From Candidatus Latescibacterota bacterium (GTDB lineage Bacteria; Latescibacterota; UBA2968; UBA8231): DNA of 64,000 bases. The position numbers and the translations under genes were made by a program. Of the stretch, positions 1 through 37,600 are shown piece after piece. The stretch is from NCBI GenBank assembly GCA_965197905.1, contig CBDAOB010000002.1, forward strand, positions 256,001 through 320,000, read 5' to 3'. The notes beneath the pieces were generated by a model. The model did not search any database, was not told the origin of the DNA, and saw nothing but the letters and a program-made list of their open reading frames with translations. Numbering within the stretch: position 1 is the first letter of the stretch; each line of letters begins with the position of its first letter.

Positions 1-1860
1 GGTGTCGGGGGCGCCATCGTTGTCTGTGTCCTGATTCACAAAGACGCCGTTGAGGTCAGTGCCGACGCGGTCTCGGGGTATGCCCGGAGCGTTGCCGTAT
101 TTGATGTCGGGATAGCGATCACCGTCGTCGTTGTCATCCACCGTCTGCCAGTACATGGTGTCGTTGAGCATGCCGTCCAGATGGCTTAGCCACAAGCTGG
201 ATTCACCATGAAGAAAAGTGCGCATCTCGGTCTGGAAATCTGGATTGACAGAAAACAGCTCGGCGCCAATTCGTCCGCGGCCGAAGCGTCGAACGGCGTT
301 GAGGAAGTAGGCCCCGCCGCGATCGGCAAAACGCGGTGCATCGTCAAAGGCCGGCTGTCCGTCGATGCGGGCGGGATAGCGGGAATACACACTCGAGCGC
401 GCGTATTCGGCCGAGATCTCAAGATCCAGAAGCGTGAGATTGGCGTCGGCGCTGTAGACGAAATTACCGGTGTTTTCCCCCACATGGAAGCGTACCCGAC
501 GCAGATTCGTGAGATCCCGAACATTGCCCCTGGCACGCCGCACCGTCTGGTAATAGGTGCTCGAGAAGCGGTCGGCGTAGAAGTTGGCAGTTTCGGATTT
601 GGTGTATAAAGTGGCCACGTCCACCAGGTAGTCGTTCCCCAACAGACCCTCCACAGCCACTGATTGGACGTCAGGTTCGCGGGAAAGGTCGAATAGAAAT
701 ACGATCTGCGTCTCGCCATCTGCCTGCAGCATGCGCTGCGGTGACTCCACCGTATGGAGAGTCTCGAGGACGGGAATATTGGCCTGTTTCCCGACATCGA
801 CGCCGGCCTCGTGATCCAGGCGCGCGAGATAGTCCGCAAACAGCGGGAAGTCGCGATTGCGGTAGTAGAATTCGTTGAAATATGGGGTGGCGGCGGAGGA
901 AGCAGTGAATAGGTCGTAGCCCAAGGGGGTGAAAGCACCCGTGACCTGCGAGACGAATCCCACCTGAATCGGCGGTTCGCCGACATGGCTGATCACCTGG
1001 GGCACGAGGTCGGGCCGCGCCTGGTCATTGATCACCAGCTGAAGATCCTGCACCGCCGCGCCGCCGACGCCATCATCAGGCGAATCATCCCGGAAGCGCA
1101 CGATGATCCAGTCCATCGTCGGCTGATCCGGCTTCAGTCGGCCCTTGAGACTGTTCCCGGTGCTCTGCGTGCTCTGGTAGACGTGCTGGTTCACCCAGTT
1201 CAAGCCCAGATGCAATGCGCCGAAATCCGCTTGGGCCCGCGTGCCCATAAGCAAGGTGGAATCATCAGCAAAATGGGCAAGGGCTTGAAATGCATCGCCA
1301 TAAGCAGAAATTTCGTCTTTGGGCCGCTCTTGTCGCGATGCGACACCGGTGAATTTCAGATAGGTCGTCGCCAGGTCGAAGCGCATGCCGTTGAAGTTCA
1401 CCTTCGACAGGGTCAATGGCGTGAAGCGTGCTTGCAGTGCGTCGCCGACAATGAGATGATAGCCCCAGTCGCCATAACCATCCTTACCCGCCACCACATA
1501 ATCGAACACGTTGATCCACGTGAGGCTGGTCCCTCCCGATTGCTTGAAAATGGAGCTGCCATACTTCAACCCCCCGGTCCGGACTTCGTCCCAGCCATAG
1601 AGATCGTAGCCGGTCATAAGGTGGTTGCCGAGGGGGTCGACGTGGGCTTTGGGGATGTCCCAATAGGGGAAGGTGTGGTTGAGGTAATTCTCGTAGTGGT
1701 TTATCGCGTAGTTGTCGTACGCGGTCCGCTGCAGGCGAAGGTAGGGCCGCGATTGATCTACCTCATTGAGAGGTATCTCGACGCCCGCCGCCTCACCTCC
1801 CGCTAAGGCGAGTGCCAGCAACAGGCCCCATCTTCTTCGCCACAGCTGTTCGGTCTTCAT
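1..1860 (-). CDS. Large exported protein of unknown function, paralogue 1 of the 8691/34688 family (C-terminus runs off the window)
   Basis: Not in the ORF track because it has no stop inside the window. Manual translation from ATG at 1860 (GGAGGAAGG RBS upstream) gives MKTEQLWRRRWGLLLALALAGG...RPYLRLQRTAYDNYAINHYENYLNHTFPYW. The same frame at the window edge reads DDNDDGDRYPDIKYG...DTDNDGAPDT, colinear with 8691..11675. Confidence 0.9.
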   Translation of the reverse strand, partial: MKTEQLWRRRWGLLLALALAGGEAAGVEIPLNEVDQSRPYLRLQRTAYDNYAINHYENYLNHTFPYWDIPKAHVDPLGNHLMTGYDLYGWDEVRTGGLKYGSSIFKQSGGTSLTWINVFDYVVAGKDGYGDWGYHLIVGDALQARFTPLTLSKVNFNGMRFDLATTYLKFTGVASRQERPKDEISAYGDAFQALAHFADDSTLLMGTRAQADFGALHLGLNWVNQHVYQSTQSTGNSLKGRLKPDQPTMDWIIVRFRDDSPDDGVGGAAVQDLQLVINDQARPDLVPQVISHVGEPPIQVGFVSQVTGAFTPLGYDLFTASSAATPYFNEFYYRNRDFPLFADYLARLDHEAGVDVGKQANIPVLETLHTVESPQRMLQADGETQIVFLFDLSREPDVQSVAVEGLLGNDYLVDVATLYTKSETANFYADRFSSTYYQTVRRARGNVRDLTNLRRVRFHVGENTGNFVYSADANLTLLDLEISAEYARSSVYSRYPARIDGQPAFDDAPRFADRGGAYFLNAVRRFGRGRIGAELFSVNPDFQTEMRTFLHGESSLWLSHLDGMLNDTMYWQTVDDNDDGDRYPDIKYGNAPGIPRDRVGTDLNGVFVNQDTDNDGAPDT

Positions 1861-2053
1861 CCTTCCTCCGATGGTTACCGATACGGCCTGAACACCTTCC
1901 GAGCCTATCGAGACAGATATAGGTACGCAAGCACTTTGCTTGAGACAAGCAATTAATTCTCTACCGATCTGGCGAGGAGACTGAGTTTGTAGACTTTAGT
2001 GTAGTTTCGTTTGAACCCGATCAATATATTCTTGGCTCGACGAAAGGAAAACC

Positions 2054-3097
2054 ATGGACATTCTCGAACGATATGTGGCGATAGACAACAAGTGCGCCTG
2101 GCCGAATCTCACCCTGATGCCTGACGGCAGTATTCTGGCCGCGATTTTTGGAGAGCCGTGCCATCAGCTGTGGGAGGGTTCGTCCGAGTGTTGGATGAGC
2201 CGGGACGGGGGCAGGCTCTGGTCCTTTGCCAGTGTGCCGGCGCACCACGAACCTGCCCGCACCCGCGGCGATCTTGCGGCGGGGTTGACGCAGGAAGGTG
2301 CCTACGTGGTCCTGTGCAGCGGTCGCAAGTTCGCGCCCCCTCGCGGGCAGAAGCTCGACCGGGAGCGGACGGAAGATGAAAAAGGCAACCAGGAAGCGGT
2401 GGTCTGTCGCACCGAAGACGGCTGCAAGACCTGGACCAAGTCAGTGGGGCAGTTCACCTACCCACCAAATGTGAGCAATGCCGTGCCGTTCGGGGATGTG
2501 GTGCAGCTCCCGGGAAATCGCCTCGCCGTTTCCTGCTATTCGGCGCCAGCAGGCCACATCGAGGACGAAACTGCCGATGGTGCCTGGATCTATTTCAGCG
2601 ACGATGACGGACGCACCTGGGGTGACGCCCGGCTCATTGGTGCAAATCGGTACAACGAAACGGACCTGCTGGCGCTGGGGGGAGGCAAGATGCTGGCTGC
2701 CAGTCGCACGGCGCGAACGGCGGAGACCGAGATCTTCGCCTCGGATGACGGCGGCCAGACGTGGACCTGCCGCGGCCCGGTGACACCGGCACGGCATATG
2801 CCTGCTCATCTGCTGGAACTGCAGGACAAGTCGATTCTCCTCACTTACGGCGTCCGTCTCAGGGGCATGCTCGGTGTCTGCGCGATGATCAGTTGCGACG
2901 AGGGAGTCACCTGGGATGCCCCCCGGGTACTGTTCAATACGGACGTTTACCAGTCAAATACCAGTCCCGAAGGCACAGACGGGGGTTATCCATCCAGCTT
3001 GCAGTTGGCAGACGGCACCATTCTGACGGCTTACTACTGTCAGCGCGTTCCTTCCCACCAACGTTACCACATGGGCGTTGTCCTCTGGCGGGATTGA
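2054..3097 (+). CDS. BNR/Asp-box repeat sialidase-like beta-propeller protein
   Basis: Asp-boxes SRDGGRLW, SDDDGRTW, SDDGGQTW and SCDEGVTW; C-terminal DGGYPSSLQLADGTILTAYY; AAGGA RBS; no signal peptide. Confidence 0.85.
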   Translation: MDILERYVAIDNKCAWPNLTLMPDGSILAAIFGEPCHQLWEGSSECWMSRDGGRLWSFASVPAHHEPARTRGDLAAGLTQEGAYVVLCSGRKFAPPRGQKLDRERTEDEKGNQEAVVCRTEDGCKTWTKSVGQFTYPPNVSNAVPFGDVVQLPGNRLAVSCYSAPAGHIEDETADGAWIYFSDDDGRTWGDARLIGANRYNETDLLALGGGKMLAASRTARTAETEIFASDDGGQTWTCRGPVTPARHMPAHLLELQDKSILLTYGVRLRGMLGVCAMISCDEGVTWDAPRVLFNTDVYQSNTSPEGTDGGYPSSLQLADGTILTAYYCQRVPSHQRYHMGVVLWRD

Positions 3098-3168
3098 GTC
3101 GCTGGTGAAGCAACTCAAGGAAGAGCCGCATCACAGGTGCCCAGATCTCCTCTCGCTGACAAGCCCAG

Positions 3169-6305: not shown

Positions 6306-6392
6306 TCTGCCCGGGATCGGGTGTAGCCGTCCTTTGGAAATCCGGAGTCATAATTCTGGCACAGATGCGCGAATCTGGAATAAATTTCTTTC

Positions 6393-6421
6393 TTGATCCC
6401 ACTCGTCGTTCTTTATATACT
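6393..6421 (+). promoter_or_regulatory. Candidate sigma70 promoter for the FlgD-Ig protein gene
   Basis: TTGATC (6393-6398), 17-nt spacer, TATACT (6416-6421), preceded by an AT-rich tract. Confidence 0.55.
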
Positions 6422-6446
6422 CTCCCGGTTAAATGTATTTGTGGGC

Positions 6447-6633: not shown

Positions 6634-8592
6634 ATGCAGAAGTTACGCAGCTTGTTTCTTGGCATGGCAATAGTCGTGCTGGCTATTGGTGCTGTGGGCG
6701 CGGAGAACTTTCCGTCTTCTGCTCCGGTAGACGAAAATTTCGACTCGCAGGCCCGCGTGCCAGATCGCTCCGGTACCCCAAATCCGTTGCGTCTCACGAC
6801 CAATGACGTGTCGTGGAACGGAAGCGGCCCCGTGGGCATCAGTTTCAATATGAACCAGCGCGCCCGCGTCTGGATTGCCATCTATGAAGTGGGTTCGGAT
6901 GCAACCGGTCCTTACGGTCCCAACGGCGCGGTCGCTCGCGCGGTGCCGCAGGACAGGTTCGTTGCTGTGTTCCCCCCTGGTGGTGCCGATTTCGAAGCCG
7001 GTAACAGCACCATCACCTGGGATGGTCGCGACTGGGAAGGCAATGCCGCCGGCGCTGGCAGCTATTCGTTCGACGTCATCGCCTTCAACCTTCTCGATCC
7101 CGCGACGTTGATGTATGGTGGAAATGGCCAGTTCGACGACCACGAAATCGACATGCGCGACCAGACGGTGTGGACGCATCGGCAGGGTCGGTTCAGGGAA
7201 GCTACTGGCGACGGCCCCCAGAATGTACAAGTCTTCAAGCTGGGCACCGACTACATCGCCAATCCCACCGCCTATGACACTTGGGATGCCAGCGCTGTGT
7301 GGGAGGTCACGGAAGAGGCCGGCAGCCGCGGTGGCCCGAAGCCCGATCCCGAGGATCCCAACATCATCTACCTGGTCAACTCCAACTGGGACAATGAGTT
7401 CACCGGTATTTACAAGGCGCGCAAGAACGAGGCGGCCAAGAGCCTGGAGCGGGTGACGGAATGGGGCGCCAACGGTTTTGCAGACGTGCCCGGGCCGACC
7501 ACCGAGAACGCCATGCAGATATTGGTCTACAACGACCAGATCATCTCGCCCAACTGGTCTCAGGCCGATCCGCCGGCCAGTGGCCTGAATTTCTGGGACA
7601 AGGGCTCCGGTGAGTTCCTCAAGTCGTTCGATGTCCGCGAATTCTTCCTGCGCTGGCGCGTCGATGACAATGGCAACCAGACCTTCAGTGGCGGCGGACC
7701 GTCTTCTGTTTCAGCCGATGACACCGGTCTGTGGCTTTGCGGTTGGAGGTCGACCTCGATCATCAAGTTGGACTGGGACGGCAATCTCATCTGGTTCAAT
7801 GGTCCCGGCGATCTCTACTCCGACCAGTTCTCCGAAGAGCGCGCTACGGCTCTCGGCCTTACCGGTCCGGCCGCGGGGGGCTCGTTTCAGCTGTCCATCC
7901 GCATAACCAACGACCGCTCGGGACACCTTGCCGTGTACAGCCCGCGCCACAATCAGTTCGGCAATCAGTACTCGGCGCTGGGTCGCGACGGTTCGGGCGT
8001 CTTGCGGCTGTTCATGGATCATACCAAGATGGGTCCGTTCAAGGCCTCTCTCGGTACCCACATCTCCTGGGTCGATGAGAACCAGGGCCGGGTGAACGGC
8101 CATTGGATCGGTCCGGATCGGCGGCCCGGCCCGTTCGACGGCATCTACCTGGACGCCAAGTGGGAACTTGAGGTCAATGGTCCGGCGCCAGAGCGCGAAT
8201 CCAGCGAGATTCGCGGGATGGAGCAGAAGTTTCACGTACCGTTCGATCTGGCCGTAGGTCGTCTGGGTGCTGGCGTAACCGCAGTCGAAGCCGACGCCAG
8301 CGCGGGCACGCCCGACAGCCATGCGCTGAGCGAGGCGTATCCCAACCCGTTCAATCCCGAGACCATCATCGATTTCAGCGTGCCGACGGACGGCCACGTT
8401 TCGATCAACGTGTTCAACACAGCTGGTCAGCTCGTGGCCACGCTGGTCGACAAAGAGCTGAGTGCAGGTGCGTACAAGTCGACTTGGGATGCCCGTGACA
8501 CACAGGGTCAACTGGTGTCGAGCGGTGTTTACTTCTATCGAATGGAAGCTGGGGATTTCTCCGCCACGCATTCGATGACCTTGCTGAAGTAA
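6634..8592 (+). CDS. Secreted protein with N-terminal FlgD-Ig-like domain, central propeller-like region and C-terminal FlgD-Ig/Por-secretion-tail-like domain
   Basis: Signal peptide; ITWDGRDWEGNAAGAGSYSF; C-terminus LSEAYPNPFNPETIIDF...WDARDTQGQLVSSGVYFYRMEAGDFSATHSMTLLK; AAGGAG RBS. Confidence 0.88.
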   Translation: MQKLRSLFLGMAIVVLAIGAVGAENFPSSAPVDENFDSQARVPDRSGTPNPLRLTTNDVSWNGSGPVGISFNMNQRARVWIAIYEVGSDATGPYGPNGAVARAVPQDRFVAVFPPGGADFEAGNSTITWDGRDWEGNAAGAGSYSFDVIAFNLLDPATLMYGGNGQFDDHEIDMRDQTVWTHRQGRFREATGDGPQNVQVFKLGTDYIANPTAYDTWDASAVWEVTEEAGSRGGPKPDPEDPNIIYLVNSNWDNEFTGIYKARKNEAAKSLERVTEWGANGFADVPGPTTENAMQILVYNDQIISPNWSQADPPASGLNFWDKGSGEFLKSFDVREFFLRWRVDDNGNQTFSGGGPSSVSADDTGLWLCGWRSTSIIKLDWDGNLIWFNGPGDLYSDQFSEERATALGLTGPAAGGSFQLSIRITNDRSGHLAVYSPRHNQFGNQYSALGRDGSGVLRLFMDHTKMGPFKASLGTHISWVDENQGRVNGHWIGPDRRPGPFDGIYLDAKWELEVNGPAPERESSEIRGMEQKFHVPFDLAVGRLGAGVTAVEADASAGTPDSHALSEAYPNPFNPETIIDFSVPTDGHVSINVFNTAGQLVATLVDKELSAGAYKSTWDARDTQGQLVSSGVYFYRMEAGDFSATHSMTLLK

Positions 8593-8621: not shown

Positions 8622-8659
8622 GTAAGGGGGTAGATTGTGAAATCTACCCCCTTACTTTT
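8622..8659 (+). terminator. Rho-independent terminator
   Basis: Perfect 15-bp stem GTAAGGGGGTAGATT, loop GTGA, AATCTACCCCCTTAC, then TTTT; about 30 nt after the stop of 6634..8592. Confidence 0.9.
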
Positions 8660-8690: not shown

Positions 8691-11663
8691 TCAAATCGGT
8701 CGTCCGAATTCCGTAAATCCTACGAGCACCCTCACGAAGAACGTTTGCGCGTGGATGTCGCGGTCGTCTCGAAATGTTGAGTCGTACTTGATTCTGTCGG
8801 AGTTCAGCCCGACAAAGGTCACGAGGTCGTAGCCAAAATAACGCGAGCTGTTGGTGAGAGAAACGAAAGCGGTGCGCTGCTCAAAGCTGTTGCGTTTTGA
8901 GGTGTCGTCCCGGCGCCGATAGGGAATGGGTCCTATGCCTTGAAATCCGATGCGCAGGTGTGTCCTGGTGAGGAGCGGATATTCAACGCGTAGAATCGGG
9001 ATAGAGCGCAGCTCCGACTGCAGCCGCACATCGCGCTCCCGATCCACCTGACGCAACAGCATGAGCTTGTACTGGGGGGTAACCTCCAACTGGCCCCAAT
9101 GCCAGACGTACTGGATGCGACTGGCCGAGGTCCAGAAATCGACCCGGCGCTGGCGCTGGAAGATGCCGTTTTGCTTGCCGCCTTGCTGCCAGTTGAACCG
9201 TCCGCGCAGCTTCTGCACGATCTCCAGGGATGACCACGGCAAAACGCGGCCTTGCAGGTAGGTGTCGCTGACGATGCTGTCGCGGTAGAACAGTTGATCG
9301 GGCAGGAACTCCACTACCATGTGCACCGGCAGGCCAAAGCCCTGGAGGACGGGCCGGCTGTAGGCAATGCCGCGGCCGCCAAAGCGGACATCGCGCTGTC
9401 CGGCGTCATCGTCGAACACCATGATCTCATCGGCGATGTCGTCTTGCACCTGGCGCACATTGCTCTCGAAAAACAGGTTTCTGAGCCTTCCCCTGCCCTG
9501 GCGCCGATAACTCAACAGAGCATAGGTTGAGCGGTTGTGCCCGCTGCCGGCAATTTCCTCGATGTCGTAACGGCCGGCGGCGGCGGACCAGTGTGGCGTC
9601 AGATGCCACTGCCCGAACAGGTGGTAGCCGCCCTCGTCGTGCTCGTAGGGGTAGTCCACTTCGGCGTCGTCCTCGCGCTGGTCCGGATCGTCATTGTTGT
9701 TGCGGTCCAAACCATACACGTAACTATTGGGCTCCACATCGAACATTAAAAACGGCTCCTCGTAGTCGGGCAGCCGGTTCAGATTGCGATTAGTATCCGG
9801 GGCGCCATCGTTGTCCGCGTCCTGATTCACAAAGACCCCGTCGAGGTCGGTGCCTACGCGATCGGGTGGTATGCCCACGGCGTTGCCGTATTTGATGTCC
9901 GGGTAGCGATCGCCGTCGTCGTTGTCATCCACCGTCTTCCAGTACATGGTGCTGTTGAGCACCATGTCGAGATGGCCCATCCACAAGCTGGATTCACTAT
10001 GCAGAAAAGAGCGCATCTCGGTCTGGAAATCGGGATTGATGGAAAACAGCTCGGCGCCGAGCCTTCCGCGGCCAAAGCGTCGGACGACGTTGAGGAAGTA
10101 AGCCCCCCCGCGATCGGCAAAACGGGGTGCATCGTCGAACGCCGCCTCTCCGCCGACGCGCGCGGGATAGCGCGAATAGACGCTCGAACGGGCGTACTCG
10201 GCGGAAATCTCCAGACTCTTCAGCTCCAGAAGGACGTCGGCACTGTAGACAAAATTGCCGGTGTGTTCCCCCACGTTGAATCGCACCCGGCGCAGATTCG
10301 TGAGATCCCGAACATTGCCCCTGGCACGCCGCACCGTCTGGTAATAGGTGCCCGAGAAGCGGTCGGCGTAGAAGTTGGCAGTTTCGGACTTGGTGTACAA
10401 CGTTGCCACGTCCACCAGGTAGTCGTTCCCCAACAAAGCCTCCACAGCCACTGATTGGACGTCAGGTTCGCGGGAAACGTCGAATAGAAATACGATCTGC
10501 GTCTCGCCATCTGCCTGCAGCATGCTCTGCGGTGACTCCACCGTATAGAGAGTCTCGAGGCCGGGAATATTGGCCTGTTTCCCGACATCGACGCCGGCCT
10601 CGTGATCCAACCGCGCCAGGTAGTCCGCAAACCGCGGGAAATCACGATCGCGGTAGTAGAACTCGTTGAAGGCCGGGGTGCTGGCCTCGGAGGCGGTGAA
10701 TAGGTCGTAGGCCAGCGGGGTGAAGGCCCCCGTGACCGCCGAGACGAATCCCACCTGAATCGGCGGCTTGCCCAGATGGCTGATCACCTGGGGCACGAGG
10801 TCGGGCCGCGCCTGGTCATTGATCACCAGCTGAAGATCCTGCACCGCCGCGCCGCCAACGCCATCACCGGGCGACTCGTCTCTGAAGCGCACGATGATCC
10901 AGTCCATCGTGGGTTGATCCGGCTTCAGTCTTCCCTTAAGACTATTTCCGGTGGTCCTCGTGCTCTGGTAAACGTGTTGATTTACCCAGTTCAAGCCCAG
11001 GTGCAACCCACCGAAGTCCGCCTGGGCGCGCGTACCCATGAGCATGGTAGAATCATCCGAAAAGTGGTCCCGCGGCTGAAATGGCTCTGTGATGTACCTG
11101 CCGGTGACGGCGTCCTTGGGCCGCTCCTGTCGCGAGGCGACACCGGTGAATTTCAGATGGGTCGTCGACAGGTCGAACCGCATGCCGTTGAAATTCACCT
11201 TCGACAGGGTCAGTGGCGTGAAGCGCGCTTGCATCGCGTCGCCGACAATCAGGTGATAGCCCCAGCTGCCGTGGCCGTCGCGTGCGGCTACCACATTGTC
11301 GAACGCGTTGGGCCACGAACCACCGGAGGCATCTGCACCAGAATCCTTGAAAATGGAGCTGCCAAACTTTCGCCCCTCGGTGCGGACTTCGTTCCAGCCA
11401 TACAGATCATAGCCGGTAACGAGATGGTTGCCGAGGGGGTCGAATTGGGCTTTGGGGTTGTCCCAATATGGGAAGGTGTGGTTGAGGTAATTCTCGTAGT
11501 GCTCTAGAGCATAGTTGGCGTACGAGGTCCGCTGCAGGCGCAAGTACGGCCGCGGTTGATCCACCTCTTGGAGCGGAAGATCACTGCCATTCGCCGCACT
11601 ACCCCCAATGACCAGCGCCAACAGGACGGTCCGATGCGTCCGCCACAGCTGCTCTGTTATCAT
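8691..11663 (-). CDS. Large exported protein of unknown function, paralogue 2 (probable outer-membrane beta-barrel with Asp-rich Ca-binding-like region)
   Basis: 994-aa ORF. Start placed at 11663 (MITEQLW) by alignment to paralogue 1 (MKTEQLW); the track start is 11675. Signal-like N-terminus, amphipathic aromatic strands, DDNDDGDRYPD/DADNDGAPD motifs, ends VGFTEFGRPI. Confidence 0.88.
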   Translation of the reverse strand: MITEQLWRTHRTVLLALVIGGSAANGSDLPLQEVDQPRPYLRLQRTSYANYALEHYENYLNHTFPYWDNPKAQFDPLGNHLVTGYDLYGWNEVRTEGRKFGSSIFKDSGADASGGSWPNAFDNVVAARDGHGSWGYHLIVGDAMQARFTPLTLSKVNFNGMRFDLSTTHLKFTGVASRQERPKDAVTGRYITEPFQPRDHFSDDSTMLMGTRAQADFGGLHLGLNWVNQHVYQSTRTTGNSLKGRLKPDQPTMDWIIVRFRDESPGDGVGGAAVQDLQLVINDQARPDLVPQVISHLGKPPIQVGFVSAVTGAFTPLAYDLFTASEASTPAFNEFYYRDRDFPRFADYLARLDHEAGVDVGKQANIPGLETLYTVESPQSMLQADGETQIVFLFDVSREPDVQSVAVEALLGNDYLVDVATLYTKSETANFYADRFSGTYYQTVRRARGNVRDLTNLRRVRFNVGEHTGNFVYSADVLLELKSLEISAEYARSSVYSRYPARVGGEAAFDDAPRFADRGGAYFLNVVRRFGRGRLGAELFSINPDFQTEMRSFLHSESSLWMGHLDMVLNSTMYWKTVDDNDDGDRYPDIKYGNAVGIPPDRVGTDLDGVFVNQDADNDGAPDTNRNLNRLPDYEEPFLMFDVEPNSYVYGLDRNNNDDPDQREDDAEVDYPYEHDEGGYHLFGQWHLTPHWSAAAGRYDIEEIAGSGHNRSTYALLSYRRQGRGRLRNLFFESNVRQVQDDIADEIMVFDDDAGQRDVRFGGRGIAYSRPVLQGFGLPVHMVVEFLPDQLFYRDSIVSDTYLQGRVLPWSSLEIVQKLRGRFNWQQGGKQNGIFQRQRRVDFWTSASRIQYVWHWGQLEVTPQYKLMLLRQVDRERDVRLQSELRSIPILRVEYPLLTRTHLRIGFQGIGPIPYRRRDDTSKRNSFEQRTAFVSLTNSSRYFGYDLVTFVGLNSDRIKYDSTFRDDRDIHAQTFFVRVLVGFTEFGRPI

Positions 11664-11903
11664 AGTTCGGACCATGGATCGTCTTTCCTAATTCGCTACT
11701 CGATTTTGAGGTGACTGACTGTGGCCTAGAAGACCATTCTTGTGCGTCACGCGAGCATCTCCGGCCTCAACAATAACGAAAGCGACTCGCGCGAGACAAG
11801 CAAATAACGTCTGATACCCGTTGTATTGGGCTGTAATTTTCCTACGTTGGAACCGAATCAACATCCTGTCGTGACGTCCCATCCTAATCAGAGAGGATTG
11901 GTA

Positions 11904-12479
11904 ATGAGATTCACCAGTTTGGTTCTTTTTTTAGCCGTCGCGGTATTGGGCATCGGGGATGTTGCCAGGGGACAGGAATGGGTGCCGTATGTAGGCGAAA
12001 TGCCGGCAAATGCCTTCATGCCTACCCGTGACAATCCCAGCGCGGGCGCGATCTGTCGAATGACGGGACCATCCGACGTTTCGCAGAAGCATTTACTCGG
12101 TTCAGTCCACGAAAAAGAGGGCGAATTAGTCTGCCGTGGCGTCACGTATCCTACTGGCAAATACACTCTGGAAAGCGGCAGCAGAATTATCGCCGATCCA
12201 CAATTTGACGTGCTTGTCGTGGATCTACTAGCAGCGGTGCAGCGGGGACCGGCAGGCATGGCGCCTGAGACGAAGGTAGATGCGGCAGGCGAATGTCCGT
12301 GGGAGACCCATTACGCGGGGCATTTGTTTTGTGAGGGGTCGGTCCAGTGGGAGAATCTCAAACCTAAAGTGGGTGTTGAGGAAATCTGGCAAGGCCTATT
12401 GTGTGTTCGGGCGTTGCAAGACTGCGGGGAAAGAGGGGGAAACGGCAGCGTGGTCTGTCGGAGATGGGATGAAGAGTGA
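11904..12479 (+). CDS. Secreted protein with a DM9/DUF3421-like repeat and Cys-rich C-terminal part
   Basis: GAGAGGA RBS before ATG 11904; signal peptide MRFTSLVLFLAVAVLGIGDVARG; pattern EWVPYVGEMPANA...AICR...LLGSV...C...FDVLV resembles a DM9 unit. Confidence 0.6.
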   Translation: MRFTSLVLFLAVAVLGIGDVARGQEWVPYVGEMPANAFMPTRDNPSAGAICRMTGPSDVSQKHLLGSVHEKEGELVCRGVTYPTGKYTLESGSRIIADPQFDVLVVDLLAAVQRGPAGMAPETKVDAAGECPWETHYAGHLFCEGSVQWENLKPKVGVEEIWQGLLCVRALQDCGERGGNGSVVCRRWDEE

Positions 12480-14598: not shown

Positions 14599-16101
14599 AT
14601 GGCGCCACCAAACCTTCTTTTCATATACACCGACCAGCAAAGGTCAGACTCGCTCGCTGCCTACGGCAACGACCTGATCCAGATGCCGAACCTGAACAGG
14701 CTGGCCGAGGAGAGCGTCGTTTTCGAGCAAACCTATGTCGCCCAGCCAGTGTGCCAGCCTTCGCGCGCGACCATACAGACGGGTCTCTATCCCCATACGG
14801 CGGGCGTCACCACCGGCCACATCTACGATACCCTCAAAACAGAGACTCCCTGCCTGCCCGAGATGGTGGATAGTGATTACTACATCTGCGGTCACTACGG
14901 CAAATGGCACCTGGGTGACGATGTCTGGGCCCAGCACGGGTTTGACGATTGGATCAGTATCGAGGATATGCAACATCGCCCGGTCTATACTGAGGGCCGG
15001 GATTCGTTTCAGCACTGCAGCTATCACGATTTCGCGGTGGGCCAGGGTTATGAGCCGGACCAGGTAGCAGATGATGGGTTCCGGGCGTTCAGCTCCGGGT
15101 TTTGCGCGCGGCTGCCCGAGGAGTTCGGCAAACCGGCGTATCTTGCGCGCGAGGCATCGCGCTTTATCCGCGAGAACAAAGCTCGGCCCTTCGTCCTGTA
15201 TGTGAGCATCTTCGAGCCCCACCAACCGTATTTTGGACCCCGCGACGATCAGTACGACCCTGCGCAGATCGCCTTGCCCCCCAACTTCGCGAACCCACCG
15301 GGAGAGGATCAGGCACTCAAGGCTCGCGTCCTCTACCACTATTACAATGAGTGCGGATTCGGCGAGCGCGGATACAGCAACTCCGGCCTCAGTACGGAGC
15401 AGGACTGGCGGGGGTTGATCGCCAGGTATTGGGGGTTATGCAGTCTGGTGGACACCCATGTAGGCACGATCCTGGACACGTTGGATCAGTGCGGTTTGGC
15501 CGACGACACCATCGTCGTCTTCACCTCCGATCACGGCGACTTGATGGGTAGCCACCGGCTGCGTGGCAAAGGACTCATGTTCGAGGAGTCGGTGCGGGTG
15601 CCGTTGCTGATCCGTGTGCCCGGAGAAACCAGCAAGCACGTCAAAGGACCGGTAGGTCACGTGGATCTCATGCCCACGCTGCTGGATATGTTGGATCAGC
15701 AAATCCCCGATCATCTCCCGGGAAAGAGCTTGCTCCCCCTCATCCGGCAGGGCGGTATCCCGTCTGCCGACCGGGACGTGTTCATTGAGTGGCAGGGTCC
15801 GCAGCCGCCAGAAGATTTTGTTCCCAAAGCCATGAAGGGAATCGTTTCCGAGGAGGAGATCCGGGCAAGTACCCTCGACCAGGTGCGGACTATCGTGACG
15901 CCGGATGGCTGGAAGTTCACCTGCAGCCCGCTGGGGGAGCACGAACTCTACAATCTCGTGCAAGACCCTATCGAAACTCGAAACCTGGCGCGAAATTCAA
16001 CCTACCGCTCTCTCATCCGAGATCTCACCGCGCGCATACAGCGCTGGCAGGAGGAAACGGGCGACACCGTAGACCTGTCGTCGGCGAGCTACCTGAACTG
16101 A
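14599..16101 (+). CDS. Formylglycine-dependent (Cys-type) sulfatase, cytoplasmic
   Basis: PNLLFIYTDQQR, CQPSRATIQTG (CxPxR), GKWHLG, FTSDHGD; AGGAGGAG RBS. Confidence 0.92.
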   Translation: MAPPNLLFIYTDQQRSDSLAAYGNDLIQMPNLNRLAEESVVFEQTYVAQPVCQPSRATIQTGLYPHTAGVTTGHIYDTLKTETPCLPEMVDSDYYICGHYGKWHLGDDVWAQHGFDDWISIEDMQHRPVYTEGRDSFQHCSYHDFAVGQGYEPDQVADDGFRAFSSGFCARLPEEFGKPAYLAREASRFIRENKARPFVLYVSIFEPHQPYFGPRDDQYDPAQIALPPNFANPPGEDQALKARVLYHYYNECGFGERGYSNSGLSTEQDWRGLIARYWGLCSLVDTHVGTILDTLDQCGLADDTIVVFTSDHGDLMGSHRLRGKGLMFEESVRVPLLIRVPGETSKHVKGPVGHVDLMPTLLDMLDQQIPDHLPGKSLLPLIRQGGIPSADRDVFIEWQGPQPPEDFVPKAMKGIVSEEEIRASTLDQVRTIVTPDGWKFTCSPLGEHELYNLVQDPIETRNLARNSTYRSLIRDLTARIQRWQEETGDTVDLSSASYLN

Positions 16102-17609
16102 AACGAGTAGAGCTTGGCATTCTTGAGGTAGAAGCGCAGCTTGATCGGCTTGCCGGCCAGCGCACTCAAATCGGAATTGCCCTTCCACGATACGACCTGG
16201 TCGAGGCTAGACTCCGTCATCGGGTCGGCGTCGTCGAAGGTGAATCCCGCCAGCTTCTTGTAGTTTGGCCGCAGGATCTCAACCCGCACCTCTCCCGGTC
16301 CGGGCCCGGCGGCGAGTGGGGCCATGCTCGCATTCAGGTGCAGATGCGACCCCGAGAATCCGAAGGGCCGCGTCACCATCTGGCCGAACGATTCGGGTTC
16401 GTCGAAGAGGACCCGTTCGCCGAACGTCTTCTCCAGCTCGTCATCGGACCGATCGGCGACGATCCAGCCTTTGCCGCTGTCCAATGAAACGAAACCGTCG
16501 ATGCGCGACGTGGCCAGACCGATGCCTTCCCTGGACTTGTCGCCCAGCTCGAAGGCGACTTCGGGCGAGCGCATGTTGGCGCCGAGGTAATAGGTCAAAA
16601 TGCGGTCCCCGTGAACGAGCATATCCATTGGGTACAAGCTGCTCGAGTCGAAGTCTGCCAGCGCGCCGCCGCGCGGGATGAACGGCTCCCGGTAGTTCCG
16701 TGGGTAGCGAAATCCGTCGCGGCTGAACACGACTTCCGGATGATGGGTGACATTCGTGGTGTGAAAGATGAACAACTGGGCGACGTAGATCCCTTCGTAA
16801 GGAAACGTCGGCATGCTGTAGAATTCGGTGTCTGGGGCATCATCGGCATCCGGCACGATAACGATCTCGGGCTCGCTCCAATGGATCATGTCCGGGCTTT
16901 CCGCCCTGCCGACAAGGCGCTTGCCGTAGGGACCGCGCCAGTGGTGGCTGGCCTCCATCGTCGCGAAGTAGGTCTCTCGGATCGGGTCCCACTCGTGGAA
17001 CCTGCCCGACCACCGGCCCAGCTCCTTCCCGGTATCGATGACGGGATTGCCCTCGAACGGGGTCCACTCGAGGGCGTCAGGAGAATAGAAGAGGTTATAC
17101 TGCATGCCCCGTGTCGCCGTACCTCCGGTCATGCACATCGCTTTGTAGAGTTTTGCCGGGTCCTTCTCGTGGAGATCCTGAAAAGCCGGTACCGTGGGCA
17201 GGTTTTCCCTCTCCGGAAGAATGTTGTTATCCGTCGACCCCTCGAACTCCACCAGGCCCAGCGACGGCCGATCCCAATTCACCCCGTCTCGCGACGTCGC
17301 CAGGCAGGTAGCCTCGCCCGTCGAGTCCCATAGATATCCGTCGAAACCACCGCGAACAGGCTTGCCATCCTCAACGAGCACGTATCGAGTCTCCGTCGAG
17401 TACCACATCTTGAACAGTTGATCGTGCGGGTCGAAAATCACCTTCAACGGCCGCAGGCAGTTTCCCTCCCACAGCCGTTCCGGTCGCATGACGGGATTGT
17501 CATCCGCCTTGATCGCCGGGTTCATGCACTGTTTGAGCCGAATCAGGCTCTCGATCAGGTAATCGTCGAAGAGGAGTTGCTTGTTGGATCCTATCTCTAT
17601 CGCCGGCAT
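16089..17609 (-). CDS. GH32/GH43-like five-bladed propeller plus C-terminal beta-sandwich protein, function unknown
   Basis: QLLFDDYLIE, SRDGVNWDRPSLGLVEFEGSTDNNI, RIDGFVSL, IKLRFYLKNAKLYSFQF; paralogous to 20054 and 24056. Confidence 0.75.
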   Translation of the reverse strand: MPAIEIGSNKQLLFDDYLIESLIRLKQCMNPAIKADDNPVMRPERLWEGNCLRPLKVIFDPHDQLFKMWYSTETRYVLVEDGKPVRGGFDGYLWDSTGEATCLATSRDGVNWDRPSLGLVEFEGSTDNNILPERENLPTVPAFQDLHEKDPAKLYKAMCMTGGTATRGMQYNLFYSPDALEWTPFEGNPVIDTGKELGRWSGRFHEWDPIRETYFATMEASHHWRGPYGKRLVGRAESPDMIHWSEPEIVIVPDADDAPDTEFYSMPTFPYEGIYVAQLFIFHTTNVTHHPEVVFSRDGFRYPRNYREPFIPRGGALADFDSSSLYPMDMLVHGDRILTYYLGANMRSPEVAFELGDKSREGIGLATSRIDGFVSLDSGKGWIVADRSDDELEKTFGERVLFDEPESFGQMVTRPFGFSGSHLHLNASMAPLAAGPGPGEVRVEILRPNYKKLAGFTFDDADPMTESSLDQVVSWKGNSDLSALAGKPIKLRFYLKNAKLYSFQFR

Positions 17610-17689: not shown

Positions 17690-18927
17690 CTAAGCCCGTG
17701 TCACGGTACCGTCAGCGCGTCGTGCTACTCCACCGGCAGATCCCGGATCTTTGAGCGGATACCGGGCCGCCAGCTGCTCATCGATGTCCACCCCCAGACC
17801 CGGCTTGCCATTCGGCCACATGTAACCACCGCGCACTTCAGGTGTTCCAGGGAACACCTCCTTCAATGTCTCATGCGTGTCCAGATAACACGAAGCCTCC
17901 TGAATGCCGAAATTCCACACATTCATATCCAGCATGAGGTTGGCCGCGTGGCCGACAGGGGAAACATCGGCGGAGCCGTGCCAGGCGGTGCGGACATTGA
18001 AGGCTTCGCACAGCGCCGCCAGCTTCCGTGCAGGAGTCAGCCCGCCCATGGTCGAAATGTGCAACCGGAGAAAGTCCAGTAGACGGTCCTTAATCATCGG
18101 AACGATCTCCTGGGGGTTGCTGTACAACTCGCCCATGGCGATCGGCGTGCTGGTCTGCTCGCGTAGGAGGCGATAGTAGTCGTTGTCCTCCGGTGCGAAA
18201 AGGTCTTCCATGAAGTATGGCTTGAATTGCTCCACGTCCTTGGCCATTGAGAGTGCTTGGATAGGCGGCATACGCGACTTGACATCGAAGAGAATCTCCG
18301 GATTGGGGCCAAAGGTGGAGCGGAACTGCTCAAAGCATGCACGATACTGCGCGCGACCGCCGTTGGCTCGAAAATGGTTCCGTCGCTTATGGACGCCTTG
18401 TTGGTGATGACGGTTGGTTCATAGTGATCTTTGTCGTGTTCCGTCAACCGACCACCCCATCCGAACTTGATGTGAAGGAAACCTCGTTCCAAGAGCATGC
18501 GGACGTGTTCCTCGTACTCTACATGGTTTTGTCCTCGAGGGATCACGTACACCGCCGCTGCCTCTCTGGACTTGCCGCCGAACAGCTCGTAAACGGGCAT
18601 CCCCGCCACCTTGCCCTTGATGTCCCATAGTGCTTGATCTACGCCGCTTAGGGCATTGTTGAGCACGGGTCCACTGCGCCAATAGGAGGACGCATAACAT
18701 GACTGCCATATATCCTCGATGTCGCTCGGGTCTTTGCCGGACAGAAAAGGCTTCAGATAATCGTCCACCGCTGCTGCAACAGCCGTCGGTCGCGTGCAGA
18801 ATGAGGCGCAGCCCACTCCGTGCAGCTCTGGCTCGTTGGTCTCCACCTTCACCACCGTGAGAGTACGAGCACCGGGTGGCTGCGTGATAATCGCCCTCAC
18901 ATCGCGAATCTTCAAATTGCTCATCAT
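17690..18927 (-). pseudogene. Enolase-superfamily dehydratase (RspA/ManD-like), split by one frameshift near 18332-18334
   Basis: N-half 18094..18927 (YWRSGPVLNNALSGVDQALWDIKGKVAGMPVYELFGG) and C-half 17690..18271 (FMED, GELY, RTAWHG, PGLGVDIDE). Adding one T (GCTTTGAG to GCT TTT GAG) fuses them as SIVHA-FEQFRSTFGPNPEILFDVKSR. May be a sequencing error. Confidence 0.85.
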
Positions 18928-19146: not shown

Positions 19147-20046
19147 ATGAAAAAAGAAAATTACGATTTCTTCAAGGCAAACGGCTACCTGTCGCTTGGA
19201 AAGATCCTGAGCGATGACGAGGTAACCCGTTTCGCGGATCTTTTCGACCGCAATCGACGGGACTTCGACCGTTTCTGGAACGACAACGGCACCTGGCAAA
19301 CCCAACACTGTGAGTCGCTCCTGACAGCGCCGGAGTTTGATGAACTGATTCGCCATCCCAAGGCCATTGAACCTCTAAAGGGCCTGATGGGCGACGAGGT
19401 CTGTTTTTCAGAGATCAGCCTGCGGCACATGGGGCCGTACGTGGGTGAGCCGCTTCCCGGAATGACGTCGTGGGAAGGGTCCGTAGGGCGACGCTGGCAT
19501 CGCGACAGTGGGGACCTCGTGTGGCCGGAACATCCGCTGCGAATCTGCTATCTCCAGATGATGGTCTACCTGGAAGATGTGGACGATACAACCCATAGCT
19601 TCGCCGTTTCGCCCCAATCGGTCGATCAGGAGATGTTTGATACGGAAGCTCAGCTTGAGTGCGGCGGCATCCACGACTATCACGGCGTTGCAGGAACAGC
19701 TATACTGTTTAACCTCTCTCGTCTACACACGGTTACCGTGCGTCCAACGCAGTCCGAACGCAAAACTGCGCAGATCTACTACGGCCACCGGCACCGCGAG
19801 TACCTCAGCGAGAGTACCTACATACCCACTCAACTATGGCGGGACCATCCCGACGAGGAAGTGCGTGGATTCTACAGCGTTCTCAATGGGAAAACCCGGG
19901 AATATTTGGAGCGTACAGCCGCCGGCGACGAGGTCCCTGTGAACGAGGTGCTGGAAATCTTGGCCGATATTGGGAAGAATGTGAACCTGCCGAGAAAATA
20001 TGGACCCCGCTGGCGTTACACTGTGCGCGGAACGAGGAGGAAATGA
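19147..20046 (+). CDS. Phytanoyl-CoA dioxygenase (PhyH) family Fe(II)/2OG enzyme
   Basis: FFKANGYL, WHRD (HxD), distal RLHT, terminal R in SERKT; start moved to the ATG after the AAGGA RBS. Confidence 0.85.
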   Translation: MKKENYDFFKANGYLSLGKILSDDEVTRFADLFDRNRRDFDRFWNDNGTWQTQHCESLLTAPEFDELIRHPKAIEPLKGLMGDEVCFSEISLRHMGPYVGEPLPGMTSWEGSVGRRWHRDSGDLVWPEHPLRICYLQMMVYLEDVDDTTHSFAVSPQSVDQEMFDTEAQLECGGIHDYHGVAGTAILFNLSRLHTVTVRPTQSERKTAQIYYGHRHREYLSESTYIPTQLWRDHPDEEVRGFYSVLNGKTREYLERTAAGDEVPVNEVLEILADIGKNVNLPRKYGPRWRYTVRGTRRK

Positions 20047-20053
20047 AGGAATC

Positions 20054-21640
20054 ATGGTAACGGATCCGACAACTGGGAACCCGACGACAGGGCCGCTGCT
20101 CGACTGGTGGTATGTTCACGCCGGCTACATGGGATTCAAGGACGGCACTTCGAAGTCGTGGGACGTGCCGATGGGAATTGAGATCGAGGCGCAGGAAGCG
20201 GAAAAGAGCGACCCAATACTGCTGCCCGACCGCCCATGGGAAAAAGAAGGAAGCGGGCCGGTCACCTCCTTCTACGTCAAGAGTGGTAGATACATCATCG
20301 ACTACTACACGCCCGCAGGTCTATGCCGCGCGGAAAGCGAAGATGGCTACAACTGGACCAAACCGGAGCTCGGAGCCGTCGAATTCGAGGGGTCGACGAG
20401 GAACAACATCATCACTACGAAATACGCTCGCATCTTCGAAGATCCTTCGGCGCCGGCGGAGGAGCGTTTCAAGGCGATAGGAAGCAGGTCGGGCTTCTAC
20501 GCTCGCGAACGGGACGCAGATGGCAATTACGTCGAGGTCCACCTGGACAAAGATGCGGTCGCCGGCCTGGGTGACCCGGATGTTCAAGATCAGCTGAGAC
20601 TTCAGGAGTGGCACAGGGAGAGCTTCGAGGGCGAGTGGGGGACGTTGAAAGCTTTCATGACCGGTGCCGTCTCACCTGACGGGCTCAACTGGACGGATCT
20701 GGAGGAGCCGCTACTAGAGGAGTTCGTCGATGGGGACAAAGTCGTCTTCTACGACGAGGCGCTGGGAAAGTATGTCGCCTACCTCCGTTTTCATGTGGCC
20801 GGCAGGCGCTGTGCGGGCAGGTGCGAGAGCGACGACTTCCGCACGTTCACACCGGAGCGGGTCGTGGTGATGCCAGACGCCCTCGACCCGCCTGACCTCT
20901 CTTTCTACAATCACGGCTACACCCGCTATCCGGGTCGCCACGATCTGCACCTGATGTTCCTGTCGCGGTACGTGCAGTCAGCGGCAACCAAGGACATTCA
21001 GCTCGCGGTCAGTCACGACGGCATCGACTGGGAGAGGCCGGACCGCAACAATCACCTCCTCGACAACTACGCCGAAGGAGCCGGCTACGGTAGCATGCTC
21101 TATGTCGGGCCAGGCCTGCTGGAGATGCCGGACGGACGCTACGCGGCCACCTACTGGGGCACCGCGCGCAAGTGCCTGCACGACAATCCCAACCAGCATC
21201 TGCCGGTTCGCTACGCCTTGTGGGAAAAGGATCGCCTCGCGGGAATTCGCGCCAAAGGGGACGGACGGCTGACCCTGCGGCAGGACCACTATCGCTCGCC
21301 GCCCGACTGCCCCGACTCCATCCCAGCGCCAATACACAATCGCTTTCCGCCCCTCGCCGACCCGAACGAGCCACCGAGGCAGCTGCGGCTCAACTACAAG
21401 ACGGAAACCGGTGGTTTCGTCAAGGTCGAGCTCATCACCCATATCGGGCCGAAGCCACACCTGTCCGGTTCCCTCGGTGCGATCGACGGTTACAGCTTCG
21501 AAGACTGCGACGTCCTCCAGGGAGACGAGGTGAACCGCGTCGTCTCCTGGAACGGCAACGACAATGTTGCCCGCCTGTCGGATTCCCTGGCGATTCGCAT
21601 CGAGATGTACAAAGCGACGCTTTTCGCGTTCAGTCTGTAG
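20054..21640 (+). CDS. GH32-like propeller plus beta-sandwich protein, paralogue
   Basis: SEDGYNWTKPELGAVEFEGSTRNNI, FEDPSAPAEERFKA, SHDGIDWERP, LRLNYKT...IRIEMYKATLFAF; start at ATG 20054 after AAGGA. Confidence 0.75.
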   Translation: MVTDPTTGNPTTGPLLDWWYVHAGYMGFKDGTSKSWDVPMGIEIEAQEAEKSDPILLPDRPWEKEGSGPVTSFYVKSGRYIIDYYTPAGLCRAESEDGYNWTKPELGAVEFEGSTRNNIITTKYARIFEDPSAPAEERFKAIGSRSGFYARERDADGNYVEVHLDKDAVAGLGDPDVQDQLRLQEWHRESFEGEWGTLKAFMTGAVSPDGLNWTDLEEPLLEEFVDGDKVVFYDEALGKYVAYLRFHVAGRRCAGRCESDDFRTFTPERVVVMPDALDPPDLSFYNHGYTRYPGRHDLHLMFLSRYVQSAATKDIQLAVSHDGIDWERPDRNNHLLDNYAEGAGYGSMLYVGPGLLEMPDGRYAATYWGTARKCLHDNPNQHLPVRYALWEKDRLAGIRAKGDGRLTLRQDHYRSPPDCPDSIPAPIHNRFPPLADPNEPPRQLRLNYKTETGGFVKVELITHIGPKPHLSGSLGAIDGYSFEDCDVLQGDEVNRVVSWNGNDNVARLSDSLAIRIEMYKATLFAFSL

Positions 21641-24055: not shown

Positions 24056-25642
24056 ATGGCAGCTGAACGAGTTCTGAGCGGGACGTGGCAAGGGTTTTAT
24101 CCGGGTGACTGGGTAAGGCCGCGAAGTAATCCCGGTACCTGGATAGCCCTCGTGGACGTCTCGGAGGTCTTTCCCGGCAACAGGTCTGTTTCTCGACAGG
24201 GCGTGTACAACCTCTACGATGCGCCCGTGGGTGTCGAGCTAAAAATCGAACAGGCCACCAGAGCGCCCATGACCTTCGAGGGCGAGGTGGAATGGGAGAG
24301 TGGTGGGCTTTCTCCAGGCGACCTTTGGTACGAAGATGGTCGCTACCACATGTTCTACCATGCCATGGGGCAGGGCACATGCTACGCCGTCAGCGATGAC
24401 TGCTACCACTGGACCCGTCCCGAGCTCGGTGAGGTGGAGTACAACGGCTCGAAGAAAAACAATCTCCACGCCAACCACCCGGAGGGAGGAATTTTTGAGG
24501 ACCCCTCAGCACCTCCGGAGGAGCGCTTCAAAGCCATGGGGGCAGGATCTGGCTGGTACGACCCAGACAACTGGGAAAAGCTCGACGAGGAAGAGGCCAA
24601 TAAGCGCTGGGACGCCATGCAGTACGAGGGGCTCGACTATAAAGGCCCCAAGGTAGTGCTGCGGGGATGGATGGTCGGCTGGACATCTCCGGATCGATTT
24701 CATGGCTGGAAGCAGATAGAGGAGCCGCTGGCCGAGTACTCGGTCAACGGGGGCATTTGCGCCGGGTACGATGAGGAAAGCGGGACCTACTTCGCCTATA
24801 TGCAGCCGCAGGGGTTTCCTCCGGAGGATCCGAAGGGCATCGGGACTGGTGTTCAGGAGGTAGAGATGGTGCGCCGGGCAAACGGCTTTTGCCGAACGAA
24901 AGACTTCCGCCACTGGCCGGGATCCAAGCTCATCATGCACCCTGATTCTCAGGACGAGCTGGACATCGCCTTCTACGCTCATAACTACTTCCCCTATCCG
25001 GGGCGCACGGACCTCCATGTCATGCTCACGCCCGTATTTCATCACATGACCGGCACGATGGATGTACAGATCGCCTTCAGCCGGGATGGGCTCATCTGGT
25101 CGCGCCCCGAACGCCGCCCCATCTTGACGGTGGGATCTCCGGGCAGTGGGCAGGAGGGCATGATCGGCGCCTCTGGCATCACGGAGCTGCCCGACGGGCA
25201 TTGGGGGGCCAAGTACTGGGGGGAATCCAGACTCCATAACGTCAAGGAAGAGTATACGGTCTCTCTTTTCCCGCAGAATCAGCCCAGAACGATGGGATGG
25301 GCTCTGTGGCAGCCGCATCGCTTCTGCGGATTCGAGGCGCAGACGGAGGGCCAGTTCACCATACCGACCATCTTTCGCCGCAACAACGAGCTGCGGCTGA
25401 ATTACCGCTGCCAGCCCGGTGGTTGGGTGAGCGTGGAACTCATGCGTTTGATGCCTTCGATGTTTCACGGAGACGTCGACCCGCTTGCCGGTTTCACCTT
25501 TGAGGAATGTGACCGGTTGCAGGGCGATTCATTTGATCAGGCCGTCACCTGGAAGGGGAACAGCGACATCTCCAGCATCGGCGAGATGGTGGCTATCCGG
25601 CTGAAGATGTTCCAGGCGAAGGTATTTGCCTATCAGGTGTGA
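24056..25642 (+). CDS. GH32-like propeller plus beta-sandwich protein, paralogue
   Basis: SDDCYHWTRPELGEVEYNGSKKNN, FEDPSAPPEERFKA, SRDGLIWSRP, LRLNYRC...IRLKMFQAKVFAY; AAGGAG RBS. Confidence 0.75.
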   Translation: MAAERVLSGTWQGFYPGDWVRPRSNPGTWIALVDVSEVFPGNRSVSRQGVYNLYDAPVGVELKIEQATRAPMTFEGEVEWESGGLSPGDLWYEDGRYHMFYHAMGQGTCYAVSDDCYHWTRPELGEVEYNGSKKNNLHANHPEGGIFEDPSAPPEERFKAMGAGSGWYDPDNWEKLDEEEANKRWDAMQYEGLDYKGPKVVLRGWMVGWTSPDRFHGWKQIEEPLAEYSVNGGICAGYDEESGTYFAYMQPQGFPPEDPKGIGTGVQEVEMVRRANGFCRTKDFRHWPGSKLIMHPDSQDELDIAFYAHNYFPYPGRTDLHVMLTPVFHHMTGTMDVQIAFSRDGLIWSRPERRPILTVGSPGSGQEGMIGASGITELPDGHWGAKYWGESRLHNVKEEYTVSLFPQNQPRTMGWALWQPHRFCGFEAQTEGQFTIPTIFRRNNELRLNYRCQPGGWVSVELMRLMPSMFHGDVDPLAGFTFEECDRLQGDSFDQAVTWKGNSDISSIGEMVAIRLKMFQAKVFAYQV

Positions 25643-30741: not shown

Positions 30742-30793
30742 GGCCTCTACTCGGTCCGCATTCCTAATTCCATTCATTCGATGAGATAATGAC

Positions 30794-34042: not shown

Positions 34043-34094
34043 CGCCCTTCCGGGTGTGGAGCTGTGGTAAACCCGTATTGCCGCAAGGTTCGAC

Positions 34095-34619: not shown

Positions 34620-34687
34620 AACCTGGTGCCGGTGCACCTCCGGTTCTGGCGGACGCTCACAAGCGAATCCAACGGCTTGAATTCGCG

Positions 34688-37600: not shown

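Follow-up and report, generated by a model that had tools for sequence, protein, structure and literature searches.

A large barrel family at the locus and across the genome

The DNA analysed here, a 64,000-nucleotide stretch of a Candidatus Latescibacterota genome (G000:C2:256001-320000, hereafter the window), carries three genes, copies A, B and C (Table 1), for a family of large exported proteins that we predict to be outer-membrane beta-barrels of about 24-26 strands and that may serve motor-coupled import. The family is real and matches no family of Pfam, NCBIfam or the Protein Data Bank (PDB), its nearest fold being Deinococcus SlpA. An earlier note on the window had described a three-copy family. 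The copies are true paralogues at the places it gave and align from end to end (85% identity between copies A and C, 51% between copies A and B), but its scale was far too small: the count of homologues per genome that the note proposed, made over all open reading frames (ORFs) of the 6.69-Mb genome (G000), found the family at 59 loci with 68 ORFs in all, of which 44 are near full length. About 170 kb is devoted to the family, whose 59 loci compare with about 24 for TonB-dependent transporters. A fourth copy lies about 2.9 kb past the window start, and copy C, cut by the window edge, is whole in the genome (986 aa). The loci are unevenly spread: C1 has none, C4 has them only between 0.51 and 1.35 Mb, and C5 has just two beyond 1.39 Mb; nine are split over frames.

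The gene for copy A is present as described, except that its start is better placed at 11675, with AGGAAAG 7 nt upstream, than at 11663, the next ATG. The shared ending GFTEFGRPI is also found on the complete copy C. It terminates only 8 of the 68 family ORFs, the final residues differing widely across the wider family, and is a subfamily ending; we therefore rejected it as a family-wide sorting signal. Identity among the 42 full-length paralogues other than the a and b genes described below ranges from 41 to 94% (median 50%), and a profile search gave 806 family clusters at 50% identity, indicating that the family is old and diverse. The closest relatives come from records titled Latescibacterota and from one Gemmatimonadaceae metagenome-assembled genome, and the family members that have names carry the labels Latescibacterota, Handelsmanbacteria and Gemmatimonadota, with a single Pirellulaceae. 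For one distant member a plasmid match was sought and none was found.

Table 1. Barrel genes, their notable segments and the adjoining propeller gene; positions are those of the window.
Feature	Position	Strand	Remarks
Copy C, c-clade barrel	1..1860	-	First 620 of 986 codons; gene continues past window start
Secreted propeller-tail protein	6634..8592	+	Probable NHL-like beta-propeller flanked on both sides by FlgD-Ig-like domains
Terminator-like hairpin, 15 pairs	8622..8655	+	Between convergent propeller gene and copy A
Copy A, c-clade barrel, 994 aa	8691..11675	-	Signal-like N-terminus, conserved N-terminal segment, predicted barrel of ~24-26 strands, three large external inserts
Asp/Asn-rich insert, copy A residues 578-680	9636..9944	-	23 D and 11 N in 103 aa
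Inserted beta-sandwich, copy A residues 244-470	10266..10946	-	Long-loop (external) side
Conserved Y-x-N-Y segment, copy A residues 37-72	11460..11567	-	Low model confidence
Copy B, c-clade barrel, 970 aa	34688..37600	+	Enolase-superfamily gene directly after; faces DUF6785 membrane gene

Structure prediction agreed with the earlier suggestion of a beta-barrel with inserted soluble domains. AlphaFold2, run on 110 sequences, modelled copy A with a pLDDT of 84.3 and a pTM of 0.83, and the latter, together with the fold matches, suggests that the barrel is closed. From the DSSP assignment of this model we count 23 consecutive barrel strands over residues 128-986, which one or three N-terminal strands would bring to 24 or 26. 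A signal-like N-terminus precedes antiparallel strands that alternate in hydrophobicity. Turns on one side are short, and the three large inserts (residues 240-468, 547-680 and 746-798) all lie on the other, the long-loop side, which in outer-membrane barrels faces outwards. The best Foldseek matches were the outer-membrane barrels MtrB (a 26-strand barrel; E 5.8e-8), SlpA and BtuB, with SprA at E 4e-4; TM-scores did not exceed 0.3, and MtrB and SprA showed 5-9% identity. A second look with VIA-align placed SlpA first (Z 14.4, root-mean-square deviation 8.5, 418 residues in order, span 126-987), many barrels scored near Z 12 in a wide VIA search, and nearly all of the top structural matches listed were outer-membrane barrels.

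Sequence searches likewise bore out the view that no known family signature is present. Pfam gave no match for copy A and a sub-threshold SlpA_C match for copy B; weak SlpA_C matches around residues 450-590 were seen in 10 of 52 relatives, none above the cut-off (best 30.2 bits against 35, over a short stretch). NCBIfam matched none of the 10 members tested, and PDB sequence and profile searches returned nothing significant. The ESM Atlas gave unnamed clusters at 0.98 and DUF6029 at 0.89, the latter a lead only. Neither the TonB-dependent barrel (PF00593) nor the plug (PF07715) was matched in the window copies or the 52 relatives, whereas PF00593 has 27 matches elsewhere in the genome. BamA, autotransporter and usher families gave no Pfam or NCBIfam match and structural matches that were partial only, Pfam and the model revealed no SLH domain and no long periplasmic helix after the signal, and the barrels are not members of TIGR04189 (SprA, about 2000 aa), the genome having a separate SprA. 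No description of the family was found in the open-access literature (supplements and subscription journals fell outside the scope of this search).

The middle domain noted earlier, with its WIIVRF and LGNDY motifs, corresponds to the inserted beta-sandwich. Folded alone it reached a pLDDT of 88.9, and it had no close structural match, Foldseek returning nothing at E <= 0.001 and VIA a best Z of 5.8 to assorted beta-sandwiches; the guess of a CBM32 or F5/8 galactose-binding jelly roll was not borne out, such folds being absent among the 50 best VIA matches. The same domain occurs at the C-terminus of P0256, an 859-aa leucine-rich Recep_L_domain protein, and may therefore be a mobile module. 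The Asp/Asn-rich stretch is the most conserved part of the protein in the wide alignment (0.46, against 0.24-0.36 for the strands), and its DxDxDG-type motifs indicate that it probably binds calcium. Among the 42 paralogues the external loops are the most variable parts (0.22-0.34, against 0.48-0.59 in the strands). The Y-x-N-Y segment is a candidate luminal cork or motor-arm contact. When several TonB-dependent transporters are superposed on the copy A model, their plug residues fall on residues 37-44 and 613-646, an indirect hint that these two parts may fill the lumen.

The core operon, its motor and the DUF4159 arm

The main clue to the family, a motor operon around its ancestral copies, lies outside the window. 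At G000:C5:478-483 kb, two divergent family members, a and b, lie in tandem in what we call the core operon. This operon also holds exbB-exbD-exbD (divergent), a third barrel and genes for a TPR protein of 1085 aa and a DUF4159 protein. Two further genes encode proteins that join an F5/8 sugar-binding domain to a tail like that of type IX secretion system (T9SS) substrates, and another encodes a probable lipoprotein of 410 aa, whose C-terminus gives NCBIfam matches to AgmX/PglI and, far below cut-off, to GltG. We compared this locus with those of 15 other genomes, chosen for their tandem copies rather than at random. Parts of the block were seen in all 15; ExbB with two ExbD lay within the fetched stretch in 7 of them (8/16 with our genome), the ExbD pair alone in 2 and neither in 6. 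In G027, G006 and G012 the order on one strand is tail protein, PorP/PorV-like barrel, a, b, TPR, DUF5683, small protein, ExbB, ExbD, ExbD, DUF4159 and lipoprotein (the fetched stretch of G006 starts at the PorP/PorV-like gene), and in these three and G019 the DUF4159 gene directly follows exbB-exbD-exbD.

The DUF4159 protein, hereafter the arm, occupies the usual place of TonB or TolA. It has one membrane helix and a Pro/Lys-rich linker, and 99 of 104 aligned sequences (mostly like those of family f10) carry a His at the TonB-like position; in a smaller alignment the membrane His is missing from 4 of 15 arms. Single-helix, His-bearing linker-plus-head proteins encoded beside exbB and exbD are the mark of Ton/Tol-type force transducers. 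The DUF4159 domain belongs to the Pfam clan of ThuA and GATaseI_like (PMC4702930), and the open-access literature yielded no paper linking it with ExbD. Our genome has only two ExbD pairs, one beside the sole TonB_C match and the other at the barrel operon. When the first 218 residues of an f10 c barrel, a cut construct, were co-folded with the periplasmic part of the neighbouring arm, the prediction gave no answer (score 0.00).

A tree of 73 sequences (FastTree, midpoint root) resolves a and b as separate clades and puts the remaining 42 full-length copies of our genome with the c-type barrels (c-side support 0.82). The c clade has expanded separately in two families, one expansion being that of f10. 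In five f10 genomes a DUF4159 gene lies within 2 kb of 15 of the 41 c-type loci, and 18 of the 23 best DUF4159 matches in f10 adjoin a barrel or sit in the core operon. This adjacency is the best evidence that the dispersed c barrels may still work with the arm. Tandem DUF4159 arrays were also observed in G012 and G006.

Co-occurrence was assessed in 121 genomes of the phylum, which are related, so that the counts reflect a few independent events rather than 121. Barrels were found in 71 genomes; of these, 70 gave the arm and 69 the lipoprotein, and both were found in 0 of the 50 barrel-negative genomes. Families f2, f3, f4 and f8 (49 genomes) gave no barrels, arm or lipoprotein (0/49); all four gave SprA (49 of 49 genomes) and DUF6785, indicating that these genomes were searchable. 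Re-testing five barrel-negative genomes with the diverse profile A4 gave no barrel (0/5, in a run that included no positive genome). SprA, present in 116 of the 121 genomes, tracks neither presence nor absence of the barrels, which are not required where it occurs. DUF6785 was found in 107/121 genomes and is highly multiplied elsewhere in the phylum; the 13 genomes of f10 gave no match. It was rejected as an obligate partner, since f2 and f3 have it without barrels and f10 has barrels with no DUF6785 match.

Neighbouring genes and a possible function in import

Using our own gene calls and clusters, we defined the neighbourhood of a barrel as the genes within 4 kb. Of 322 genes near barrels, 96 (30%) were of catabolic type or DUF6785; for the neighbours of TonB-dependent transporters the figure was 11 of 198 (6%), and for the genome as a whole 508 of 5440. 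Most of the neighbouring catabolic enzymes have no N-terminal hydrophobic stretch. Under a null that keeps genes in their regions, sulfatases (p 0.01) and BNR proteins (p 0.005) were still enriched and DUF6785 was borderline (p 0.065). Signalling genes were under-represented (4 against 13 expected), and no multiheme partner gene was found at the annotated barrel loci. CRTAC1 proteins, which the earlier note had linked to the barrels, were rejected as partners (4 observed, 5.7 expected).

The propeller-tail protein encoded next to copy A is one of 17 paralogues in its genome and a candidate surface lid or adhesin. Its C-terminal FlgD-Ig-like domain resembles the T9SS type A tail; the propeller call comes from Atlas scores below 0.9 and is a lead only. 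The proposed co-localisation of such genes with barrels was supported, 10 of the 17 lying within 3 kb of a barrel (null 3.0, p 0.0005, propeller-only profile) and 7 within 500 bp (null 1.7, p 0.0005), although just 10 of the 59 barrel loci have one within 3 kb and 49 do not. Orientations vary, and the hairpin between the convergent genes indicates that the propeller gene and copy A do not form one transcript. Identities of paired barrels and propellers correlate (Mantel r 0.83, p 0.0003, 10 pairs, largely one recent triplet). A propeller gene was seen at 19 of 67 related loci; the propeller query matched 9 of 121 genomes, among which high copy numbers were confined to this genus. At one locus (L074:2895-6500) a 1202-aa protein fuses DUF4838 to a propeller-plus-tail protein, two genes upstream of a barrel.

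As regards secretion of such proteins, the genome encodes 89 with a C-terminal FlgD/T9SS-type tail as well as SprA and PorV-like genes, and GldM and GldN gave no match, with controls that were weak or silent. Tail proteins as a class are weakly enriched near barrels (14/89 within 3 kb, p 0.04; 16/89 within 6 kb, p 0.21). The earlier idea that the barrels export them is weakened by this and by the SprA found in every genome of the four barrel-negative families.

The barrel fold, the motor operon, the co-occurrence with arm and lipoprotein, the variable loops and the catabolic neighbours all led us to consider that the family may consist of import barrels that are coupled to a motor and have diversified in specificity, a counterpart of the Ton system made of other parts. 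To this reading we give an even chance. In such a system, the variable external loops and the beta-sandwich would bind a complex organic substrate, in some copies with the aid of the propeller protein exported by the T9SS. In place of a TonB plug, the N-terminal segment together with part of the Asp-rich insert would close the pore. ExbB-ExbD-ExbD would use the proton motive force to drive the membrane-anchored arm, which would act on the barrel either itself or by way of the TPR protein and the lipoprotein. Transporters of the inner membrane and enzymes of the cytoplasm, the products of nearby genes, would then take over the substrate. A fixed core would consist of the single a and b barrels, with the c barrel as an exchangeable, multiplied module. 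The role filled by SusC/SusD in other bacteria is a plausible analogy. TonB-dependent transporters are the textbook route of active uptake across the outer membrane. It is tempting to speculate, although we hold this broader claim only tentatively, that the barrels form a second class of energy-coupled importer independent of them, with 24-26 strands, a cork formed by the calcium-binding insert, a DUF4159 arm that pulls on them and a fixed two-barrel core, the exchangeable third barrel having given rise to dozens of copies, each specific for its substrate, at least twice in Latescibacterota.

Several findings weigh against import. External loops are variable in most barrels whatever their job, the catabolic enrichment is mostly regional (the groups resembling glycoside hydrolases and PhyH lose it under the region-keeping null), and co-occurrence among related genomes amounts to a few independent losses. 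ExbB was unseen in the fetched stretch of 8 of the 16 core loci, the core arm of our own genome is among those without the membrane His, and few dispersed barrel loci have a motor gene nearby. DUF6785, the putative inner-membrane partner, is present in the barrel-negative f2 and f3 and was not found in the barrel-positive f10. Finally, in f2 and f3 the candidates for TonB-dependent transporters do not clearly rise in compensation (rough counts); a replacement of these transporters by the barrels across genomes is not supported by the candidate counts.

The likeness to the Ton system, including SusC/SusD and BtuB/BtuG, lies in the ExbB/ExbD motor, a single-helix arm with a Pro-rich linker, many barrel paralogues per few arms, copies beside catabolic genes and a possible propeller lid, BtuG being a seven-bladed propeller lid (bioRxiv 10.1101/2022.11.17.516869). 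By contrast, the barrels described here exceed 22 strands in the model, have large external inserts and match no TonB barrel or plug in Pfam; the DUF4159 head replaces TonB_C, the propeller partner bears a T9SS-type tail instead of a lipid anchor, and the genome retains a separate canonical Ton system. Transducers with a vWA head resemble our operon in gene content, with a TPR gene, a single tolQ-like gene and two of tolR type, and in a membrane arm that bears the His and ends in a head other than that of TonB; they are described as being of unknown function (Williams-Jones et al., 2025, PMC12204202). In our case the head is DUF4159. The main text of that paper contains neither 'Latescibacter' nor 'DUF', and its six mentions of 'barrel' appear not to concern such partners. 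We regard the barrel system as a variant of the ExbBD-driven envelope machines.

Another such machine offers a different function. The Agl-Glt complex of Myxococcus comprises GltA/B/H, GltC and the adhesin CglB (PMC11761067) as well as GltG and AglRQS; its motor has one TolQ and two TolR, and its three outer-membrane barrels hold a surface adhesin. Here too there are three barrels, TPR scaffolds, an arm like TonB, a motor whose two ExbD differ and surface proteins, which in our operon bear an F5/8 domain; a and b are adjacent wherever both are seen, and the lipoprotein combines the AgmX/PglI domain with the weak GltG match. The barrels could then belong to a force-transmitting machine for adhesion or surface motility, with the c copies and propellers as its adhesin repertoire. 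We find this rather unlikely, as no Glt family model in NCBIfam matches the barrels, the third barrel is multiplied about 57-fold, the head of the arm differs, and the dispersed copies sit among cytoplasmic catabolic genes with few signalling genes. An arrangement in which only the core operon is energised is also unlikely; the dispersed c barrels would then be large porins that pass selected substrates passively, or structural outer-membrane proteins of the SlpA/OmpM type (PF21620; PDB 8ae1, 7zgx). SlpA is the best whole-barrel structural match, the weak SlpA_C matches point the same way, SlpA too has metal-binding pore inserts (PMC9388160), and the roughly 57 c loci of our genome stand against 3-4 DUF4159 genes, of which the core one lacks its His. 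Yet SlpA/OmpM proteins are defined by an N-terminal SLH domain and a coiled-coil stalk (PMC9388160), neither of which the barrels have; every barrel tested fell below the Pfam cut-off, the strands number fewer than 30 by our count, and the family is tied to a motor operon. Moreover, every one of the 71 barrel-positive genomes has the arm, the lipoprotein or both, and in f10 the arm gene has been duplicated along with the c barrels.

Slightly less likely again, in our estimate, is a platform for display or anchoring, in which SprA would export T9SS-tailed proteins and the barrels, with the PorP/PorV-like barrel, would use motor energy to hold or load them. Tail proteins do occur in the core operon, with a PorP/PorV-like gene between them and barrel a in G001, G027, G006 and G012; the co-duplicating propellers and the unmatched GldM and GldN would also fit. 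The near-universal presence of SprA, also where barrels are absent, stands against it, as do the many barrel loci without a propeller gene, the position of most of the 89 tail proteins away from any barrel and the few genomes matched by the propeller query. Energised export of polymers or proteins through the barrels, as in TonB-type secretion or Nfs-like handling of surface polymers, seems very improbable: so large a pore could let bulky cargo through, and secretion through a TonB-dependent barrel has been reported (PMC6434023), but no genes for polymer synthesis or export stand out near the copies, whose neighbours are degradative, and dozens of diverged copies suit many incoming substrates better than one export product.

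If the barrels are importers, carbon-use predictions for Latescibacterota, an uncultured and widespread phylum, miss the main uptake genes. The findings link the family to a second ExbBD motor and give DUF4159 a first testable role, for which the barrel-arm gene pairs of f10 offer a compact system for expression. From the window we learn how far and in what pattern the c barrels have expanded, that they pair with arms or propellers, and how their neighbourhoods differ from those of TonB-dependent transporters.

Other genes of the window

Upstream of copy A and divergent from it, an ORF with a signal-like stretch (11826-12479, plus strand) has no Pfam match and was dropped by the coding model. 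Three proteins of about 500 aa (16089-17609, 20000-21640 and 24056-25642), without Pfam or NCBIfam match, come from large clusters within the genome; we treated them as putative glycoside-hydrolase-like propellers, from the likeness of their motifs. A mandelate racemase/enolase-superfamily gene (17690-18927, minus strand) is split over two frames, with the N-domain at 18094-18927 and the C-domain at 17690-18271, for which a frameshift and an assembly error are candidate explanations. Further along the minus strand lie a cytochrome c552 (NrfA-type nitrite reductase) gene (44001-45590), two genes for 316-aa Gfo/Idh/MocA oxidoreductases with the same domain boundaries (45954-46904 and 48649-49599), which flank a UxuA-like gene, and propeller-sensor hybrid histidine kinases (54154-62901), seemingly split into sensor and kinase ORFs.

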